This document shows positions 3,048 through 27,100 of a stretch of DNA of 64,000 nt, piece by piece (within the stretch, counting starts at the first letter, position 1; every line of letters starts with the position of its first letter). The translations under genes and the position numbers were made by a program. This DNA is from Dictyostelium discoideum (lineage: Eukaryota), in the NCBI GenBank assembly GCA_000004695.1, contig CM000152.2, positions 3,200,001-3,264,000 of the forward strand, in the 5' to 3' direction. The notes beneath the pieces are model-generated. The model was not told the DNA's origin, did no database searches, and worked only from the letters and a program-made list of their open reading frames with translations.

Positions 3048-6382
<3,335 letters not shown>

Positions 6383-16941: not shown

Positions 16942-17706
16942 ATGAAAAATAAATTAATTAATCTATTATTTTCATTAATTTTAATTTTTTTATCCATTAA
17001 TGCTTCCCAGAGTTTAGGTGCACATAAAACCACTGTCACACCGACCCCAACTCCAAATATTACAGTGACTCATACTTTAGCTCCTAATATTACAGTTACA
17101 CCAACCTCAACTCCAAATATTACAGTTACTCCTACCTCAACTCCAAATATTACAGTCACACCAACATCAACTCCAAACATTACAGTTACTCCAACATCAA
17201 CCCCTAATATTACAGTTACACCAACATCAACTCCAAATATTACAGTTACACCAACCTCAACTCCAAATATTACAGTTACACCAACCTCAACTCCTAATAT
17301 TACAGTTACACCAACCTCAACTCCAAATATTACAGTTACTCCAACCTCAACTCCAAATATTACAGTTACTCCTACCTCAACTCCAAATATTACAGTCACA
17401 CCAACCTCAACCCCTAATATTACAGTTACACCAACCTCAACTCCAAATATTACAGTTACACCAACTTCAACCCCTAATATTACAGTCACACCAACATCAA
17501 CTCCAAATATTACAGTTACACCAACATCAACTCCAAATATTACAGTTACTCCTACCTCAACTCCAAATATTACAGTCACACCAACATCAACTCCTAATAT
17601 TACAGTCACACCAACCTCAACTCCAAATATTACAGATACTCCAACCTCAACTCCTAATATTACAGATACTCCAACCTCAACTTCAAATATCACAATTTAT
17701 TTCTAA
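16942..17706 (+). CDS. Secreted mucin-like protein: signal peptide plus about 25 tandem copies of a 12-aa TPTSTPNITV(T) unit with N-glycosylation sequons
   Basis: Track ORF 16942..17706, hydrophobic N-terminus, near-perfect 36-nt repeat. Confidence 0.7.
   Translation: MKNKLINLLFSLILIFLSINASQSLGAHKTTVTPTPTPNITVTHTLAPNITVTPTSTPNITVTPTSTPNITVTPTSTPNITVTPTSTPNITVTPTSTPNITVTPTSTPNITVTPTSTPNITVTPTSTPNITVTPTSTPNITVTPTSTPNITVTPTSTPNITVTPTSTPNITVTPTSTPNITVTPTSTPNITVTPTSTPNITVTPTSTPNITVTPTSTPNITVTPTSTPNITDTPTSTPNITDTPTSTSNITIYF
17040..17690 (+). repeat. 36-nt coding minisatellite (Pro/Thr/Ser repeat)
   Basis: Direct tandem repeat seen in the sequence; antisense ORF 17070..17693 is its shadow. Confidence 0.9.
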
Positions 17707-19539: not shown

Positions 19540-21021
19540 ATGAATTTTAAATCAGTTATTTTATTATTATCATTTTTGTATTTTATATCAATAGTTGGTT
19601 GTTTAAAAACTGAAGATATTAATTATTATCAAGATGGTGAAAAACTAGTGTTTCAAATAAATCCTAACTCTGGATTTAATGGTAACAATTTGGTAATTTC
19701 TGAATTTCCATCAATTGCATCAAAAGGAAATTTTAACCAATCAAAACAACTTTTAAATATGCCATTTTTTAATTTAGACAACGGTTCAGTTTCATACAAC
19801 TTAACACTCCTTAAATTGTAAGTTTTTTTTTTTTTTATTTTCAAAAATTATCAGAATATTTTTTATTTTTCGTTTTTCGTTTTTCGTTTTTTCTAAAATT
19901 AAAAAAAAAGATCACCAAATTCATTACCATATAAAGCATATTTATCACCTTTTATTGGTGATGGATATAATTATACACTCTATTTTAATTTATTTGAAAA
20001 AACAAATTATTGTTCAAAAGCAAATTTCAAGAATTCAGAAGAATATACTTATCAATCATGTATTAATGGTGGAAAAAATAATGATTCTTTTTCTCAAGCT
20101 GGTGATCTATTTGAAGCATCATATGATATTTCCCAAGTTGATTTAGTTAGAATTAACTATAAAGCAACTCAATTTAACTATGGTTGTTCTAGAAATACTT
20201 GGTTTAATATTTATTGTGATAAAAATCAAGATTTCAAATTACTTGGTATGGGTGCTAATTATTGTAATTACGAGGTTAATATTTTATCATCTCATGCTTG
20301 TCCAGTGTACTCATCTATTCCTTATAACAAAATTGGTGATAGTACCTATGAACTTAATGTTGGTCCACTCTATAATCATACTGCTCTATTTTACTATATC
20401 AATGGTTCTATGATTAAATTCGATCTTAACTCCACTTCCCAATACACACCATCTCCAACACCATCTGAGACACCATCTCTAACACCATCTGAGACACCAT
20501 CTCCAACACCATCTGAGACTCCATCCGAGACACCATCTGAGACACCATCTCCAACACCATCCGAGACACCATCTCCAACACCATCTGAGACTCCATCTCT
20601 TACACCATCTGAGACACCATCTCCAACACCATCTGAGACTCCATCTCTTACACCATCTGAGACTCCATCTCTTACACCATCTGAGACACCAACTCCAACA
20701 CCATCCGAGACACCATCTCCAACACCATCCGAGACACCATCTCTAACACCATCTGAGACTCCATCTCTTACACCAACCTCAACACCAGTACCAAGTCCAA
20801 AGGTTTATTGTAGATCCAATCGTTTTGGAATTACAATTAATAGTACTGAAACAGTTTCATGTAGAGGATTTGGAAAAACAAAATGTATAACTAAATTGGG
20901 AAGTGAGTGTAGCACTGATAATCTAGATGGAGAAATAGTTTGTACTTCTAAATCATTACAATGTTTTGGTACCAACATTCAATGCATTTCAGGTGATGTT
21001 TATTGCTCAATTGATTTCTAA
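19540..21021 (+). CDS. Secreted mannose-6-phosphate-receptor-homology (MRH) domain protein with a Pro/Thr/Ser repeat stalk (TPSETPSP x about 13) and a Cys-rich C-terminus
   Basis: Two exons: 19540..19817 (donor GTAAGT, phase 2) and 19911..21021 (acceptor AAAAAAAG). MRH-like pattern: Y.YQSC..G...[11 protein letters not shown]...[15 protein letters not shown]......ANYCNYE...HACP. Confidence 0.7.
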
Positions 21022-21208
21022 ATAAATAATTAAATGTTTTGGAATACTTTTATTAAAATTAACAAAACATTTCATTCACTCCAGATCTCTAAATTTTTTT
21101 TTTTTGTTTTCCTTTTTTTTTTTTCTTGTATTTAAATTTTTTCAATAACATTCTTTGATATTTGAAGTTTTTAAAATATTTGATTTTGAATTTGATTTTT
21201 TTTTTAAA

Positions 21209-21239
<31 letters not shown>

Positions 21240-22078
21240 CACATTTGATATTTATAATATATTAAATTTTTATTTGTTGGAGTTTTGGTTCCCTCTTTTT
21301 AAAAATTTTTAAAGTCCTTAGTGTAAAAAAATACACCCCTTTCAAATCGGGATAGTTTCTTTAGAATGTTGGATGATGAAAAAATATATTTCCAAGGGAG
21401 AATTCCAAAAGATAAATATCCAATATTTAAATTTTAATTATTTATTGGTTTGGATTATTAAACTATTATTTACTCCTGAAGTCGGTTTTATTTTTCCATT
21501 TTTTTATATTTTTATTAGCAATATTTAAAAAGAGATGGATTTATTTTTATATTTTAAAATAATTTTTACTGAAGACAAGCAAGTACACAAGCAGACTAGA
21601 AAAAAAAACGTAAGAAATTTTACTATTTTATGAGAAATTAAACTACCACAAATTCTCATATTTTAAGAAACGAATAGCAAATTATTAGATATTCAAAAAA
21701 TGAGTGATAAAGATTTTAAAAGATAGTATGGGGTATCCAAGTATTTATTCTTCCTTTGTGAGAAACTACAAAGGAGATAGAACAGATATAGGCTCTCATT
21801 TGCATTTCGGTTATATTATTTAAATTTTTTTAAATTTATTTAAATTAATTATAGGGAAAAAAAAATAATATTAAAAAAAAATAATTAATAAAATTAAAAT
21901 AAAAGAAAATAAATTAAAATAAAATAAAAATAAAAATAATTAATTTATATTAAATAAAAAAGATAAAATAAAATAAGTAAATATTAATGTTTTTTAAATA
22001 CTGCAAAAATGGTGTATAAAATTATGAAAATGGTGTAATTAAAAAAAAAAATAATCTTTAAAAATAATATATTCTTTT

Positions 22079-23352
22079 TTATTTATATCTACATCGGTGA
22101 ATGGCACAATTTCCATTAATTTTTTTTATTTCTCTGAGTTCAAATTCTGTAAATAAAAAATTTTCATTCACCACATCTTGTAACAAAGGTTGAGAATTTA
22201 AAAGATAATGGTTATCAATATTAATATAATTAATATCTACGACAATTATTAAATAAAAAGGGATATTCCAATTTTCATCATTATTGAAACGACCAATACA
22301 AATAACAAAAGAGTTTGATTTATAAAGAGGAAACGATTTGAAAGTATGTAGGTATGGTTCAGTGAAAAGCTCTGGAACTGAAACAGACATTGGAATAAAA
22401 TTCAAAGTGGAAGGTAGTAGTTTTAGTTTATTGATGATTGGTGAAAAGATAATCGGAGTCCCAACTTCACTTGATAATTCTCAATCAATGATAAAAGACA
22501 AAGGCATTGTTTCTTTACCACGGCACTTATCTAATGGTTTTGATTGGTTTGAAAAAATTTGTGGACTTGTTGGTGGAACCCCAACAATTCCACAAATTTT
22601 TTCATATTCCTCTTGTTTAAAATTGGGAATCACAAAGTTTTTGAGATTAGCATGCGCACATAATGGACATACTACCATTAAATAAGATCGGACATCAGTA
22701 TACATATTCGGATAGGCGAGTTTATTCTCTTTAAGTATATTTAAAATTTTATATGGCAGAGAGTGATCCAACGTATGGAGGAAATAAACATGACCCCAAA
22801 ATTCTGAATATGATACATATATTGAAAGTTTTTGTCTTTTTTCTTTATTTGCGCCCTTCAAACACAAATTTTCACCTTCTAAACATGTGATATTATAACC
22901 ATTTTTATCTTGAAATGTTTTGAGGGAAATATTATTTTCTTCAATTTTCTCTCTAATACCTAATCGGGTTTTTACACTTCTATCTCTTAAATAAATAACC
23001 ATTTTATTAATTATATCTATTGTAAGACATACTATTTGGGACATTTTTATTTGATGATTAAAAAAAAATAAAAGTTGAAGAAAATTTAAACACAAAAAAA
23101 TTTTCTCACAAAAAGTCGTTTGGTTTTTTTTTTATTTTTTTTTTTTATTTTTTTTTATATTTTTTTAAAAGTTTAATTTTTTTTTAATTTTTTTTTTTTT
23201 TATTTATTTGAAAATTTTTTGATATTTTTTGTTCTAATCAAAATATCTAAGTTTGAATTTGATTTTCTTACCTTCATTAAAAGTGTGGCTTCTTTAAAAG
23301 GACATTTAATCTCGATCATAGCATCATTTTCATACTCTGTTCCATATGCCAT
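22079..23352 (-). CDS. Hypothetical protein of about 370 aa, interrupted by a single in-frame TGA at 22481..22483. Possible pseudogene, sequencing error or readthrough
   Basis: Exon 1 is 23352..23272 (MAYGTEYENDAMIEIKCPFKEATLLMK, donor GTAAGA). Exon 2 starts at 23104 (acceptor TTTTGTGAG, phase 0) and contains track ORFs 22481..23095 and 22079..22405. Those two ORFs are in the same frame, separated only by the TGA. Confidence 0.4.
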
Positions 23353-24072
23353 CGCTCTTTGTACAAAATGATTGAAAAATCTTTTTTCTTTACCTTCGAA
23401 ATATCAAGAGCCATGGCCTGGGAAGTGTATTTACAATCTTTTGAATAAAAAAAGTCTTGCCACTGAGTAAATTTTTTAATTAAAATTTTTTTTTTTTAAA
23501 TCACAGTAATTATTAATAGTTTTTTCAGATCTGGCAGAAATTTAAATTTTAATTATTTTCATAATTTCGGCATAATTATAGGGGAAATTAAAATTTTTAA
23601 AAAGGCTGTATTGTAATTTCTCATTTTTTAAAACATAAAAATATATGATATCTTATATTATTGAAAATTATAATAAAATGATAAAAAATAATGGGTGTAA
23701 AATAAATATTTAAATAAAAAATTTTAAAATATAAGATTTTTAATTTTTTTAAATAATTTATTCCTTATTTATTAATCAAAACATAATATTATTTATCTTT
23801 TTTTTTAATATATTTTATTATTTTTTTTTTTAAAAATAATAAAGGTTAGAATTTTTATAAATAATTTTATTTTTTTATAAAATATCCTATTTTCTAATAA
23901 TTATTATAATTATTTAAAAAAAAAATTTCAAAAAAAAAAATAATTAAAAAAATTTATAAAACTCTAATATATTTTCTTATTTTTTTAGTATTAATTAAAT
24001 TTTAATAAAAAATGCTTTTTTTTATTTATAATAAGTTTCATTTTTTTATATAATAATTTATAAATCAAAAAA

Positions 24073-24158: not shown

Positions 24159-27100
24159 TTATTTTTCAATTAAAATAGATTTTGATTCAGAAGAAAGACC
24201 AGGTAAAACACAAACTTTTAAATAATTCTTTTCTGCTTTTGCAGTAAAAGAAGGAGAGTTAGCTTGAGGTGAATTTGAAGATTTTTCATGAATTGAATCA
24301 ACCTTTACAAATTTCAATTCTGAAGGACCTTTTTGATTACGATATTGAATTGAATCTTTGAATTCAAAAACCAATTCTTTACCATTTAAATGTTTTGAAT
24401 ATAAATTTGATAAGAGGGTAATTAATACAGTTTTTTTATTGGTTTCCAAACAGAGATCATGTTCATTGATTATGTGAATAACGAAAAAGTCATCAGAGAG
24501 TTTACTGAATGAAATTTTTTCAATTGCAGAGAAGGGCACTTTACGTTTAATTGCAAACCATGAACCATCTTTCTTTGGTTTATGTGGTGTAATTGTGAAA
24601 ATGGTTTCATTGGTAACTAATAATGAACGTTTTTGAATCTTATGATGACGACTAACTTTGGAAACATTTAAAGAGAGTTGAAGAACAGCATTTGGACCTT
24701 CTTCTCTTTTTAAGGTTGCAGTGGTATAGTTATCTCTTGTGAGTGAGAGGAAATCACCAATAAAGGCAGCTTTACTAAGTTTAATGGATTGTCTATTTCT
24801 CTCTTTATTATTTTGGAAAATACTAATTGATTGATTCTTTAGTTTAACACATTCTCTAACGAGTAACCAACCTCTATAGGTCCTTTGAATTTTAATTGCA
24901 GCTAAAGTACGTAAATACCATTTTCTTTGTTTATACATTTTCCAAACTGATCCAATTTTAGTGGCTAAATCATTTAATCTCTTATTTCTTTTATCCTCTA
25001 ATAAGAACAATGGTTGTGGATTACGAATGAAAATCTTTGTTTTACCATATTGAACCTCCTCTTTGATGTTGATTTCTTGAGTTAATTCACCCATTAAGAG
25101 ATTAACACCCTTTTCAGCATCACCTGACCATTTTGGCCAAGTTGATTTACCAATCATATAATAACGACGCATAAATTTAGAGAAAGTTTGACGATAACAA
25201 TAACCTGCACGACGTACTAATAAATTTTCAAAGAGACCAAGATAAGCCACTTGTTCAGCACATTTACTTTGATCCCATTCCAATGCTCTCATATTTGAGT
25301 TTGGTTTAATACAACGAACATAATGTGGTGAACAACTGTAAAGTGATTTCAATAGTGAAGTAACTTGATTCTTAAATTGGAAACCAGCAGTGATTGGTCT
25401 TTTCTTATCGGTTGGAATAAATGTTTTTGCAGCATTATTTGCAAAACCATTCTTTGAAAATTTATCACGATTCTTTTTCTCTTGTTCTGGATCGACTTCA
25501 AGTGGTGGTACATATTTGAAAATTTCGACCAATAGTGAACAACTACTACTTGTGGCCAATGTAACTAAATCATTAAATAGTGTATCTCTATTCTTATCGA
25601 GGAAACCATCGATATTATAGAAAACTTTACCAGCATAATGATTGATAATGAATTGTGAATTCTTTTGTCTCTCTACCTTTGAATAATGAGTATGATTTGA
25701 AAAGTGTTTATTTAATTTATCGATCATAGTTTGATCATTACCTTCTGGGAAAAGACATTCTTCATCCAATAATGAAAGAATACCAATTGGCTTCTTTTCA
25801 ATTAAATCAACACATGCTTTATTATTAATATATTGAACTGGAATCCATGTAATACCCTCTTGGACGTATTCTTCTTGTTCAGTTTTCAATGTTAGATCAA
25901 TGAAAATTTGTTGAAGTGTTTCATTGACATAATTGATACAAAATTGTTCGAATGAATTGTTCTCAAAGATTTCAAAACCATAGATATCCAATACACCAAT
26001 TACTTTACCAATGGTTTTAACTTCAATGGATTGATTGATCTTTCTAACGATGAAATCAAATAATTTACTATAGGTTGCTTTAGCAAATGCATCACGTGCA
26101 TACATAGCTTGTTCAACGGTTTGTGGTACTGAATAGGTTGAAATACGTGCACCTTGACCTGTACTAATCTGACGAGATACCAATGAACTTTCCAATACTA
26201 TTGCATCAACACCCATCAATGATGCTATTGTATTTGCTAATTTTTTATCGGAAATTACCGAACCATTACCAGAGGCGGATTTATTGAATGAAAGATTACC
26301 CAAGAGTAAAATTGCTGATAATGTTGCAAAGATTTCCTTTTGTAATGGTTCATCGATTCCAACCACCTTCATTGCATTCTTTGTTTGTTTAAATCCAATT
26401 TGATCATCAATACCATCGGCAGTGAAACAACCATTACTTGCATTTCTAGTTAAATAATGATATTGATCCGGTGATAATAGATTGTATGTTTTCTTTTCCT
26501 CCTCTGATGAACCTTTTAAAAGTTGATAGAAAATATGAAAATTACGTTCACCTTGAGTTTGATTGATTACACGTGACTTTTCCAAGAGGTAATTTGTAAT
26601 TTTACCACCTTCTGGATCACCTCCCAAATTGAATTGAATCTCCATATATTTACCAAAACGACTTGAATTATTGTTACGTAATGTTTTTGCATTACCAAAT
26701 GCTTCCAATAAAGGATTAGACTCTAAAATGGTTTTTTTAACTCTTTCTACCTCTGTACTACTACCAGTAATACTTGCAATATATTGCATAATATATTTAC
26801 TTGCTTCTGTTTTACCTGCTCCTGATTCTCCTGATATAATAATACATTGATTCTCACCCTCTGATCTTAATGCTCTATATGCTTTATCAGCAATACTATA
26901 AATATGTGGTGGAATTTCAAATTCATGTTTACCTTTATATAAATTAATTTGATCATTTCCATAAATTCCTAATTGTTTATATGGATTCATTGAAACTAAT
27001 ACTGGTCCGATTGATGTCTTTTTTTTTATTATTTTAAAAAAATAAATAAAATATATAAAAAAAAAAAAAAATTTATAAATTAATAGGAGATCTCTTTTTA

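Follow-up and report, generated by a model that had tools for sequence, protein, structure and literature searches.

In eukaryotic selenoprotein genes, an in-frame UGA is followed by a long open frame and accompanied by a SECIS element in the 3’-UTR, while pseudogenes that arise from duplicated or inserted gene copies accumulate several independent disabling lesions as intact relatives persist elsewhere. Near-perfect inverted repeats can be created within genes by template switching during replication, a mechanism documented in PMC5453318 and PMC8794818 and, where coding DNA is concerned, in PMC8604942. Moreover, protist genomes harbour endogenous fragments resembling Nucleocytoviricota, and YqaJ is counted among the conserved genes of nucleocytoplasmic large DNA viruses (NCVOG1192; PMC3493329). 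The locus considered here, which lies on the minus strand of a 64-kb stretch of DNA from Dictyostelium discoideum AX4 (hereafter, the window; G+C content ~22%), has points of contact with each of these systems.

Like selenoprotein genes, the locus contains an in-frame TGA with a long open frame behind it. The initial annotation had described two ORFs in the same frame that are parted by the TGA alone, and this description holds, as the minus strand translates from 23095 to 22079 with a single internal stop at 22483..22481. The stop-free runs flanking it comprise 216 and 133 codons, a configuration that occurs only once among the 9,503 pairs of adjacent inter-stop intervals in the six frames of the whole window. 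The product that the TGA terminates shares 100% identity with DDB_G0280303 of D. discoideum AX4 (187 aa), a protein that is not mentioned in the literature searched and that, aligned to relatives of 337–358 aa, represents the N-terminal 55% of an ancestral protein of ~337 aa. The features of this orphan gene are the following:

22484..23044, minus strand: annotated coding sequence of DDB_G0280303, with its ATG at 23044 and its last codon at 22484.
22481..22483, minus strand: premature stop TGA, at a column where relatives carry Arg codons.
22483..22493, minus strand: junction of a 78-bp deletion, with the surviving direct repeat ATCATTGAT at 22492..22484.
22082..22480, minus strand: stranded C-terminal half, with 133 stop-free codons after the TGA, including a 108-aa ORF (22079..22405).
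22127..22132, minus strand: 5-bp deletion (CACTC) before an A-run, which shifts the frame near the 3’ end.

The TGA is best explained as an ordinary loss-of-function lesion in a decaying, element-derived gene copy and not as a recoding signal, a reading to which we give a probability of roughly 0.85. DDB_G0280303 should therefore preferably be regarded as an N-terminal stump left by gene decay, and not as a genuine gene of 187 aa or a recoding candidate.

The reference genome was assembled from older Sanger-era reads and, thus, a sequencing or assembly error, one of the options offered by the initial annotation, was a reasonable explanation beforehand. However, a second, chromosome-scale assembly (GCA_054883475.1) matches 5,564 bp of the window with 100% identity, and a Logan contig from run SRR26869267, with 2 mismatches in 1,116 bp, shows the same TGA, both deletions and the palindrome discussed below. 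Moreover, gene calls on nine contigs give exactly this 187-aa product. The agreement of the second assembly and of an unrelated read set on the TGA refutes this option and leaves an error with a negligible probability. A short intron spanning the TGA was likewise ruled out, in line with the initial annotation: the GT…AG candidates are only ~20–30 nt long, none of them is plausible, and the neighbouring codons are homologous to the coding sequence of the relatives.

These relatives are few. A search of 5.8 billion proteins returned six, and a profile search run exhaustively over 1.84 billion representative proteins returned eight family members, all from Dictyostelium or Logan contigs, and no remote family from which a function could be borrowed. 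Sequence searches of Pfam, PHROGs and PDB with the orphan and the conserved element proteins gave no informative matches, and AlphaFold2 runs on three full-length relatives reached a mean pLDDT of 36.7, which makes the model unusable. Seven copies of the gene are found in Dictyostelium, of which three are intact (those in locus L001 of D. cf. discoideum, in L002, i.e., the AX4 paralogue DDB_G0284189, and in L006) and four are broken. The alignment of AX4 with the full-length relatives is continuous across the AX4 stop, where the relatives have 26 extra residues, and the half located after the TGA shares 92% nucleotide identity with positions 3588–4050 of L001 and aligns to the C-terminal halves of the relatives.

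Comparison with these copies reveals three lesions of the orphan gene that are specific to AX4, namely the nonsense codon, the deletion of a conserved block and a frameshift. At the column of the TGA, the codon is CGA in L001, L003 and L007 and AGA in L002 and L008, so that all five alignable copies encode Arg; the sixth, from D. citrinum, is shifted by an indel at that column. Directly 5’ of the TGA, nucleotide alignments show that 78 bp (26 codons) are missing from AX4. The corresponding segment measures 78–87 bp in all six relatives and encodes a conserved PTxYxGEPLQ...YHI block, and the gap is bounded by two ATCATYGAT direct repeats. Near the 3’ end, AX4 reads GAGAA, a gap of five bases and ATAAAAAAAATT, where L001 and L002 read GAACACTCAAAAAAAAAATT. 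The frameshift caused by this 5-bp deletion replaces the conserved tail SKKKLIEIVPF, although the old frame past the deletion is still legible in AX4 as KKLMEIVPFTDVDINKK, i.e., KKLMEIVPF.

The stop column, both deletions and the gutted YqaJ gene that adjoins the orphan gene (see below) bear out the option of a recently inactivated gene, which the initial annotation had also listed. As in pseudogenes derived from duplicated or inserted copies, several independent disabling lesions coexist here with intact relatives elsewhere, deletions are bounded by short direct repeats, and decay has also reached the adjacent gene of the inserted unit. Unlike in ordinary pseudogene decay, the N-terminal 187 codons have stayed open and are annotated as a gene, and the large deletions are all multiples of three. 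The same two observations would be in keeping with a truncated but functional or split gene, in which the 187-aa N-terminal product is used, perhaps together with a C-terminal product started at an internal Met, and the TGA is a normal stop. Such a gene would also accord with a newer annotation, which places a 103-aa gene on the downstream part, with dN/dS values between AX4 and L001 of 0.50 and 0.39 for the two gene halves (pairwise estimates from small counts), and with an AX4 branch that is the shortest among the three close copies. However, the deleted block is conserved in all relatives, the conserved C-terminal motif has been lost by frameshift, and the partner YqaJ gene has been destroyed. 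The pairwise dN/dS between AX4 and L001 includes the branch of the intact partner and, thus, says little about AX4 alone, and a fossil evolving at the host mutation rate would equally give a short branch. A truncated gene that still functions is, in consequence, considered unlikely.

Across the family, dN/dS amounts to 0.3–0.5 between intact copies and to 0.7–0.8 between AX4 and L003, which are both broken, all of these being pairwise values from small counts; they are compatible with a real, weakly constrained protein family whose dead copies have undergone relaxation. Over 1,046 aligned columns, lineage-specific substitutions number 33 in AX4, 50 in L001 and 60 in L003, and the shortness of the AX4 branch fits a chromosomal fossil that has stayed near the ancestral state.

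Programmed readthrough of the TGA or the insertion of selenocysteine would yield a protein of ~320 aa. Both would make sense of the 133 in-frame codons that remain free of stops past the TGA, and TGA is an unusual terminator here, since the 17 open stretches of at least 250 codons in the window end in TAA (15) or TAG (2) and never in TGA. Nevertheless, the homologues show neither a stop nor Cys or Sec at this position but Arg (CGA or AGA). The frame past the TGA has undergone a frameshift of its own and is missing the conserved tail, and its openness reflects recent descent from an intact gene, with an AX4 branch of only ~3%. No SECIS element was matched in an Rfam scan of positions 21000–24000, even at E ≤ 10, and a scan of the whole window at the Rfam gathering threshold returned no family. 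The locus therefore differs from selenoprotein genes in having neither a SECIS nor a redox motif, in the Arg of its homologues and in its damaged downstream frame. The initial annotation had already judged selenocysteine unlikely, with which the missing SECIS and the Arg codons agree; the programmed readthrough that it had kept as an option finds no support, as no copy other than that of AX4 has the stop, the frame behind it is damaged and no recoding signal was found. Recoding in either form is extremely improbable.

Within the preferred reading of the TGA as a decay lesion, the orphan gene of AX4 has lost 78 bp between the repeats, carries a TGA in place of Arg directly after the junction, and has lost 5 bp near its end. 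The stop itself could have originated in two ways. It may stem from a separate CGA>TGA transition, or it may have been made by the 78-bp deletion, if this was a single slipped or microhomology-mediated event whose junction fell one base past the repeat (GAT-T/GA-GAA, with the stroke marking the junction). The latter is conceivable because the bases that come next differ, T (of TCA) behind the upstream repeat and C (of CGA) behind the downstream one. L003 has ATCATCGAT plus T at the upstream and ATCATTGAT plus C at the downstream repeat, and AX4 reads ATCATTGAT plus T, then GAG. On these sequences, a transition and the deletion itself would be equally parsimonious sources of the TGA.

The decay extends beyond the orphan gene into a neighbouring gene for a YqaJ-type exonuclease, of which the following parts are left:

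22037..23430, minus strand: the whole element-derived fragment (1.4 kb), made up of a 5’-truncated YqaJ remnant, an intergenic spacer and the decayed orphan gene.
23200..23430, minus strand: remnant of the YqaJ-type (PF09588) exonuclease gene, which contains the supposed exon 1 of the orphan gene and a composite 50-aa ORF (23352..23200).
23430-23321, minus strand: YqaJ piece 1, equivalent to L001 2163-2273, with a 1-bp deletion.
23320-23301, minus strand: YqaJ piece 2, equivalent to L001 2406-2425, the MIEIKCP active-site piece.
23300-23202, minus strand: YqaJ piece 3, equivalent to L001 2711-2809, followed by the gene’s own TAA at 23202-23200.

In D. cf. discoideum, the orphan family gene of L001 sits just downstream of an intact YqaJ gene (L001 2059–2811, 250 aa), whose product matches the Pfam family YqaJ (PF09588) with E = 2e-25. 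Positions 23430–23202 of the window align to this gene in three pieces with 87–100% DNA identity, the IEIKCP motif included. Only 229 of the 753 bp are left in AX4, where the first 104 bp are gone and two internal deletions have removed 132 and 285 bp, and the 50-aa ORF is stitched together over the deletion junctions. The remnant is too short for a functional member of the family. Together with the 78-bp deletion of the orphan gene, the two internal deletions form a set of three large deletions whose lengths are all divisible by three, an outcome that would be mildly unexpected under neutral decay (~1 in 27).

These data also settle the nature of the segment 23352..23272, which the initial annotation had taken for an upstream exon spliced in phase to the orphan gene. 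The phase is arithmetically correct with the AG at 23106-23105, but the segment lies inside the separate YqaJ remnant and is not an exon of the orphan gene. The supposed donor GTAAGA is GTCAGA in the intact gene of L001, where the YqaJ ORF runs through to its own TAA.

The homology between the window and L001 is limited to 23430..22037, and tblastx detected no further shared genes. The fragment is flanked by host genes, with a class-I myosin gene upstream (24159-26990) and a gene with 24-bp tandem repeats downstream. Since the flanks differ, L001 was ruled out as a positional orthologue of the window locus. Other copies are found in further surroundings, that of L008 between the TCP1 and synaptobrevin genes and that of L006 beside a DDE transposase, while the copies in L001, L003 and L007 lie amid other element genes. 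A YqaJ gene or remnant is located directly upstream of the orphan family gene in four of the seven loci, and YqaJ genes form a multi-copy, patchily distributed family in dictyostelids. The AX4 paralogue DDB_G0284189 adjoins DDB_G0284191, a VapE/DUF5906 helicase whose UniRef name starts with “NrS-1 polymerase-like”; a search of the large protein collection with this helicase brought up nothing beyond the query, probably as low-complexity words took up the list of candidates. Among the genes that accompany the copies are YqaJ, genes resembling primases and helicases, a weak VLTF3-like gene and orphans. The 1.4-kb fragment of the window is a piece of a multi-gene element that resides at different places in different Dictyostelium genomes, and an intact version of it would have a gene for a YqaJ-type exonuclease and, after it, one for an orphan protein of ~337 aa.

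The most distant member of the orphan family, P0009 (25% identity, E = 1e-15), is encoded on a Logan contig, L011 (ERR13950607_18298), which measures 12.6 kb and carries 15 intron-free genes at a coding density of 84% and a G+C content of 33%. A motif resembling ACAAATAAT is present upstream of about half of these genes. Seven of them have homologues in the Dictyostelium loci:

169-aa protein of L011: 74% identity to its Dictyostelium homologue.
482-aa protein of L011: 52–56% identity.
YqaJ of L011: 51% identity.
260-aa protein of L011: 44% identity.
GRF zinc-ribbon protein of L011: 40% identity.
446-aa prim-pol-like protein of L011: 28% identity.
Orphan protein of L011: 22–33% identity to its Dictyostelium homologues.

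The profile match to prim-pol is weak. Pox_VLTF3 is the top match of both the 482-aa protein and its Dictyostelium homologue, with E = 5.6e-4 and 1.6e-3, which lie below the Pfam threshold. No capsid protein, packaging ATPase or DNA polymerase was detected among the 15 proteins of L011, and a scan of IMG/VR with these proteins gave no relatives. L011 may derive from a free or recently integrated virus. The gene set of the proposed element thus comprises a YqaJ recombinase, prim-pol-like, VapE/D5-like helicase and VLTF3-like proteins, a GRF zinc-ribbon protein and several orphans.

In several respects, the element recalls the endogenous Nucleocytoviricota-like fragments of protists. Its gene set is dispersed and patchy, it contains a YqaJ recombinase, a weak prim-pol-like protein, a D5/VapE-like helicase, a deoxynucleoside kinase and a weak VLTF3-like factor, and it comes with many orphan genes, broken copies and a related compact, intron-free contig. 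Unlike for such fragments, no capsid, packaging ATPase or DNA polymerase gene was found, nor any relatives in IMG/VR. A viral origin may be reasoned from the gene content and from the two sub-threshold VLTF3 matches. On this basis, we tentatively propose, at somewhat less than even odds, that DDB_G0280303 and its paralogue DDB_G0284189 are fossils of large-DNA-virus-like elements, which would form a family not yet described and would have entered Dictyostelium genomes repeatedly. This element is absent from the papers found on the exchange of genes between viruses and D. discoideum. To our knowledge, no dictyostelid virus is known or has been isolated and, thus, should the element be viral, its fossils would be indirect evidence of a dictyostelid virus and would open a way into the virome of social amoebae, of which little is known. 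Whatever its origin, the orphan gene travels with a set of replication and recombination genes in several Dictyostelium genomes, and the same set is found on a virus-like contig. This makes the element family a more interesting outcome than the TGA itself, whose explanation is ordinary.

A further peculiarity of the orphan gene is an inverted repeat within its coding sequence, upstream of the TGA:

22550..22604, no strand assigned: palindrome of 55 bp, with arms at 22550-22573 and 22581-22604 and a spacer at 22574-22580.
22338..22685, plus strand: antisense ORF of 115 aa without independent homology.

The initial annotation had reported an imperfect palindrome of 50 bp at 22552..22602. The palindrome is real but longer than stated, with arms of 24 nt that are complementary at 23 of 24 positions and a 7-nt spacer, and it encodes the stretch EKICGIVG-VP-PTSPQIF. 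It is the only non-homopolymer hairpin of such quality in the 64 kb, none being found in 100 composition-matched surrogates of the window, and as single-stranded DNA it folds with -24 kcal/mol (z = -7.6). The antisense ORF and the near-identical peptides encoded by both strands, which had been noticed together with the palindrome, are present as described. The mirrored peptides and the antisense ORF are automatic consequences of the palindrome being in register with the codons, and the ORF is most likely spurious, a by-product of the palindrome and of local composition.

The pairing of the arms differs widely among the copies:

AX4: 23/24.
L001: 17/24.
L003 and L007: 13/24.
L006: 12/24.
L002: 9/24.
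L008: 9/24.

The distant paralogues are at chance pairing (9–12/24). Three-taxon parsimony assigns ~21/24 pairs to the ancestor of the close trio (AX4, L001 and L003), with one position unresolved, the outgroups being only 60–70% identical and aligning poorly in the right arm. The family as a whole conserves the left arm (EKICGIVG), which in AX4 is identical to the reconstructed ancestor, while the right arm lies in a hypervariable, indel-rich linker. Since that ancestor, L001 has lost four pairs and L003 about eight; AX4 has gained one through a specific G>C change at position 13 of the right arm (5’ to 3’ on the minus strand), and one more AX4 change is neutral to pairing. From these states, the palindrome appears to have arisen before the divergence of the trio but later than its separation from the distant paralogues, and would be older than the AX4 lesions. 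A link between palindrome and stop, as implied by the initial annotation, is not supported by this order of events.

The likeliest origin of the palindrome is a replication template switch, in which the left arm would have been copied, inverted, over the hypervariable linker at short range before the trio diverged. Drift would have followed, and the AX4 fossil would have kept the palindrome best and gained one more arm-matching change. A switch specific to AX4 had been considered, as four of the five differences between AX4 and L001 perfect the palindrome; with more copies, most of these differences proved to be derived in L001 and, for this reason, the event was moved to the earlier branch. 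As in known template-switch or quasipalindrome mutations, a near-perfect inverted repeat is found here at a place where one arm is replaced by unrelated sequence in the relatives, the arm that is conserved makes a plausible donor, several adjacent amino acids are changed, and one later change in AX4 homogenises the arms further. The case differs from them in that the founding event falls on an internal branch, with outgroups too divergent to provide the states before and after.

Alternatively, the palindrome could be a functional cis-element of the element or its transcript, such as a protein-binding or cruciform site or an RNA hairpin, and be maintained by selection. Its stability and its improbability by chance would suit this explanation, as would the ~21/24 pairs already present in the putative ancestor and the pair gained in AX4. 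However, the intact copies all pair poorly (17/24 in L001, 9/24 in L002 and 12/24 in L006), the best pairing being that of a dead copy, and Rfam gives only weak, generic hairpin matches far below threshold. Moreover, L003 shows 9 changes in the 48 arm positions where ~3 would be expected from the overall rate, which is the opposite of conservation. A function under selection is hence very unlikely, and the palindrome is preferably read as the trace of a template switch. It would then be a plausible example, from a protist coding sequence, of a template switch that rewrote several adjacent codons at once.

The region around the intact AX4 paralogue of the decayed orphan gene looks like a second, better preserved AX4 piece of the same element as the window fragment. 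Two stretches and two genes are concerned:

L002, 2747-2875 and 4619-6823 on AX4-type chromosome CM142510.1: DDB_G0284189 (the intact paralogue) and DDB_G0284191.

A short YqaJ remnant lies immediately upstream of DDB_G0284189, and downstream of it is found a VapE/DUF5906 helicase of 734 aa, whose UniRef name begins 'NrS-1 polymerase-like h...'.

The most distant family member is carried by the compact, 12.6 kb Logan contig ERR13950607_18298 (1-12635; L011, with L010 listed alongside), which may be a piece of an unknown large DNA virus. This contig has a G+C content of 33% and a coding share of 84%, and contains 15 genes, all intron-free, encoding YqaJ, a deoxynucleoside kinase, a GRF zinc-ribbon protein, a weakly matching VLTF3-like protein, and orphans. 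Homologues of 7 of these 15 genes are present at the Dictyostelium loci. A ACAAATAAT-like motif is repeated 5' of approximately half of the genes in the contig.

Large deletions in the AX4 fragment were located at the following sites:

Window 22483-22493, 23301-23321 and 23300, within the minus-strand fragment: three large AX4 deletions of 78, 132 and 285 bp.

All three are flanked by microhomologies of 5-9 bp, and each length is divisible by three, a mildly unexpected outcome with a chance of about 1 in 27 under neutral decay.

Broken copies of the family gene occur elsewhere. Two of them (L003 and L007), both from the D. discoideum assembly GCA_054859385.1, are 99% identical and have in common a 1-bp deletion in the left arm of the palindrome (the inverted repeat inside the gene) and a 1-bp insertion 3' of the Arg codon. 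P0003 and P0005, the gene models published for these copies, are probably artefacts, since their predicted introns span the 1-bp lesions. A further broken copy, whose site differs from that of the AX4 copy, is inserted between host genes for TCP1 chaperonin and synaptobrevin:

L008, 5001-5878, D. cf. discoideum GCA_054859235.1: broken family-gene copy, annotated as two adjoining small genes (113 and 102 aa).

Two other features of the window were observed:

Window 20446-20775: tandem repeat of a 24-bp unit (13.8 copies, 89% match, consensus ACACCATCTCCAACACCATCTGAG), within ORF 20248..21021 of the convergent host gene downstream of the fragment.
Window 16942-17706: overlapping long ORFs on opposite strands, 16942..17706 (+) and 17070..17693 (-).

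The latter is probably a low-complexity repeat-coding region; its GC skew is strongly negative (-0.49), and the product of the plus-strand ORF weakly matches an Extensin-like, proline-rich protein.
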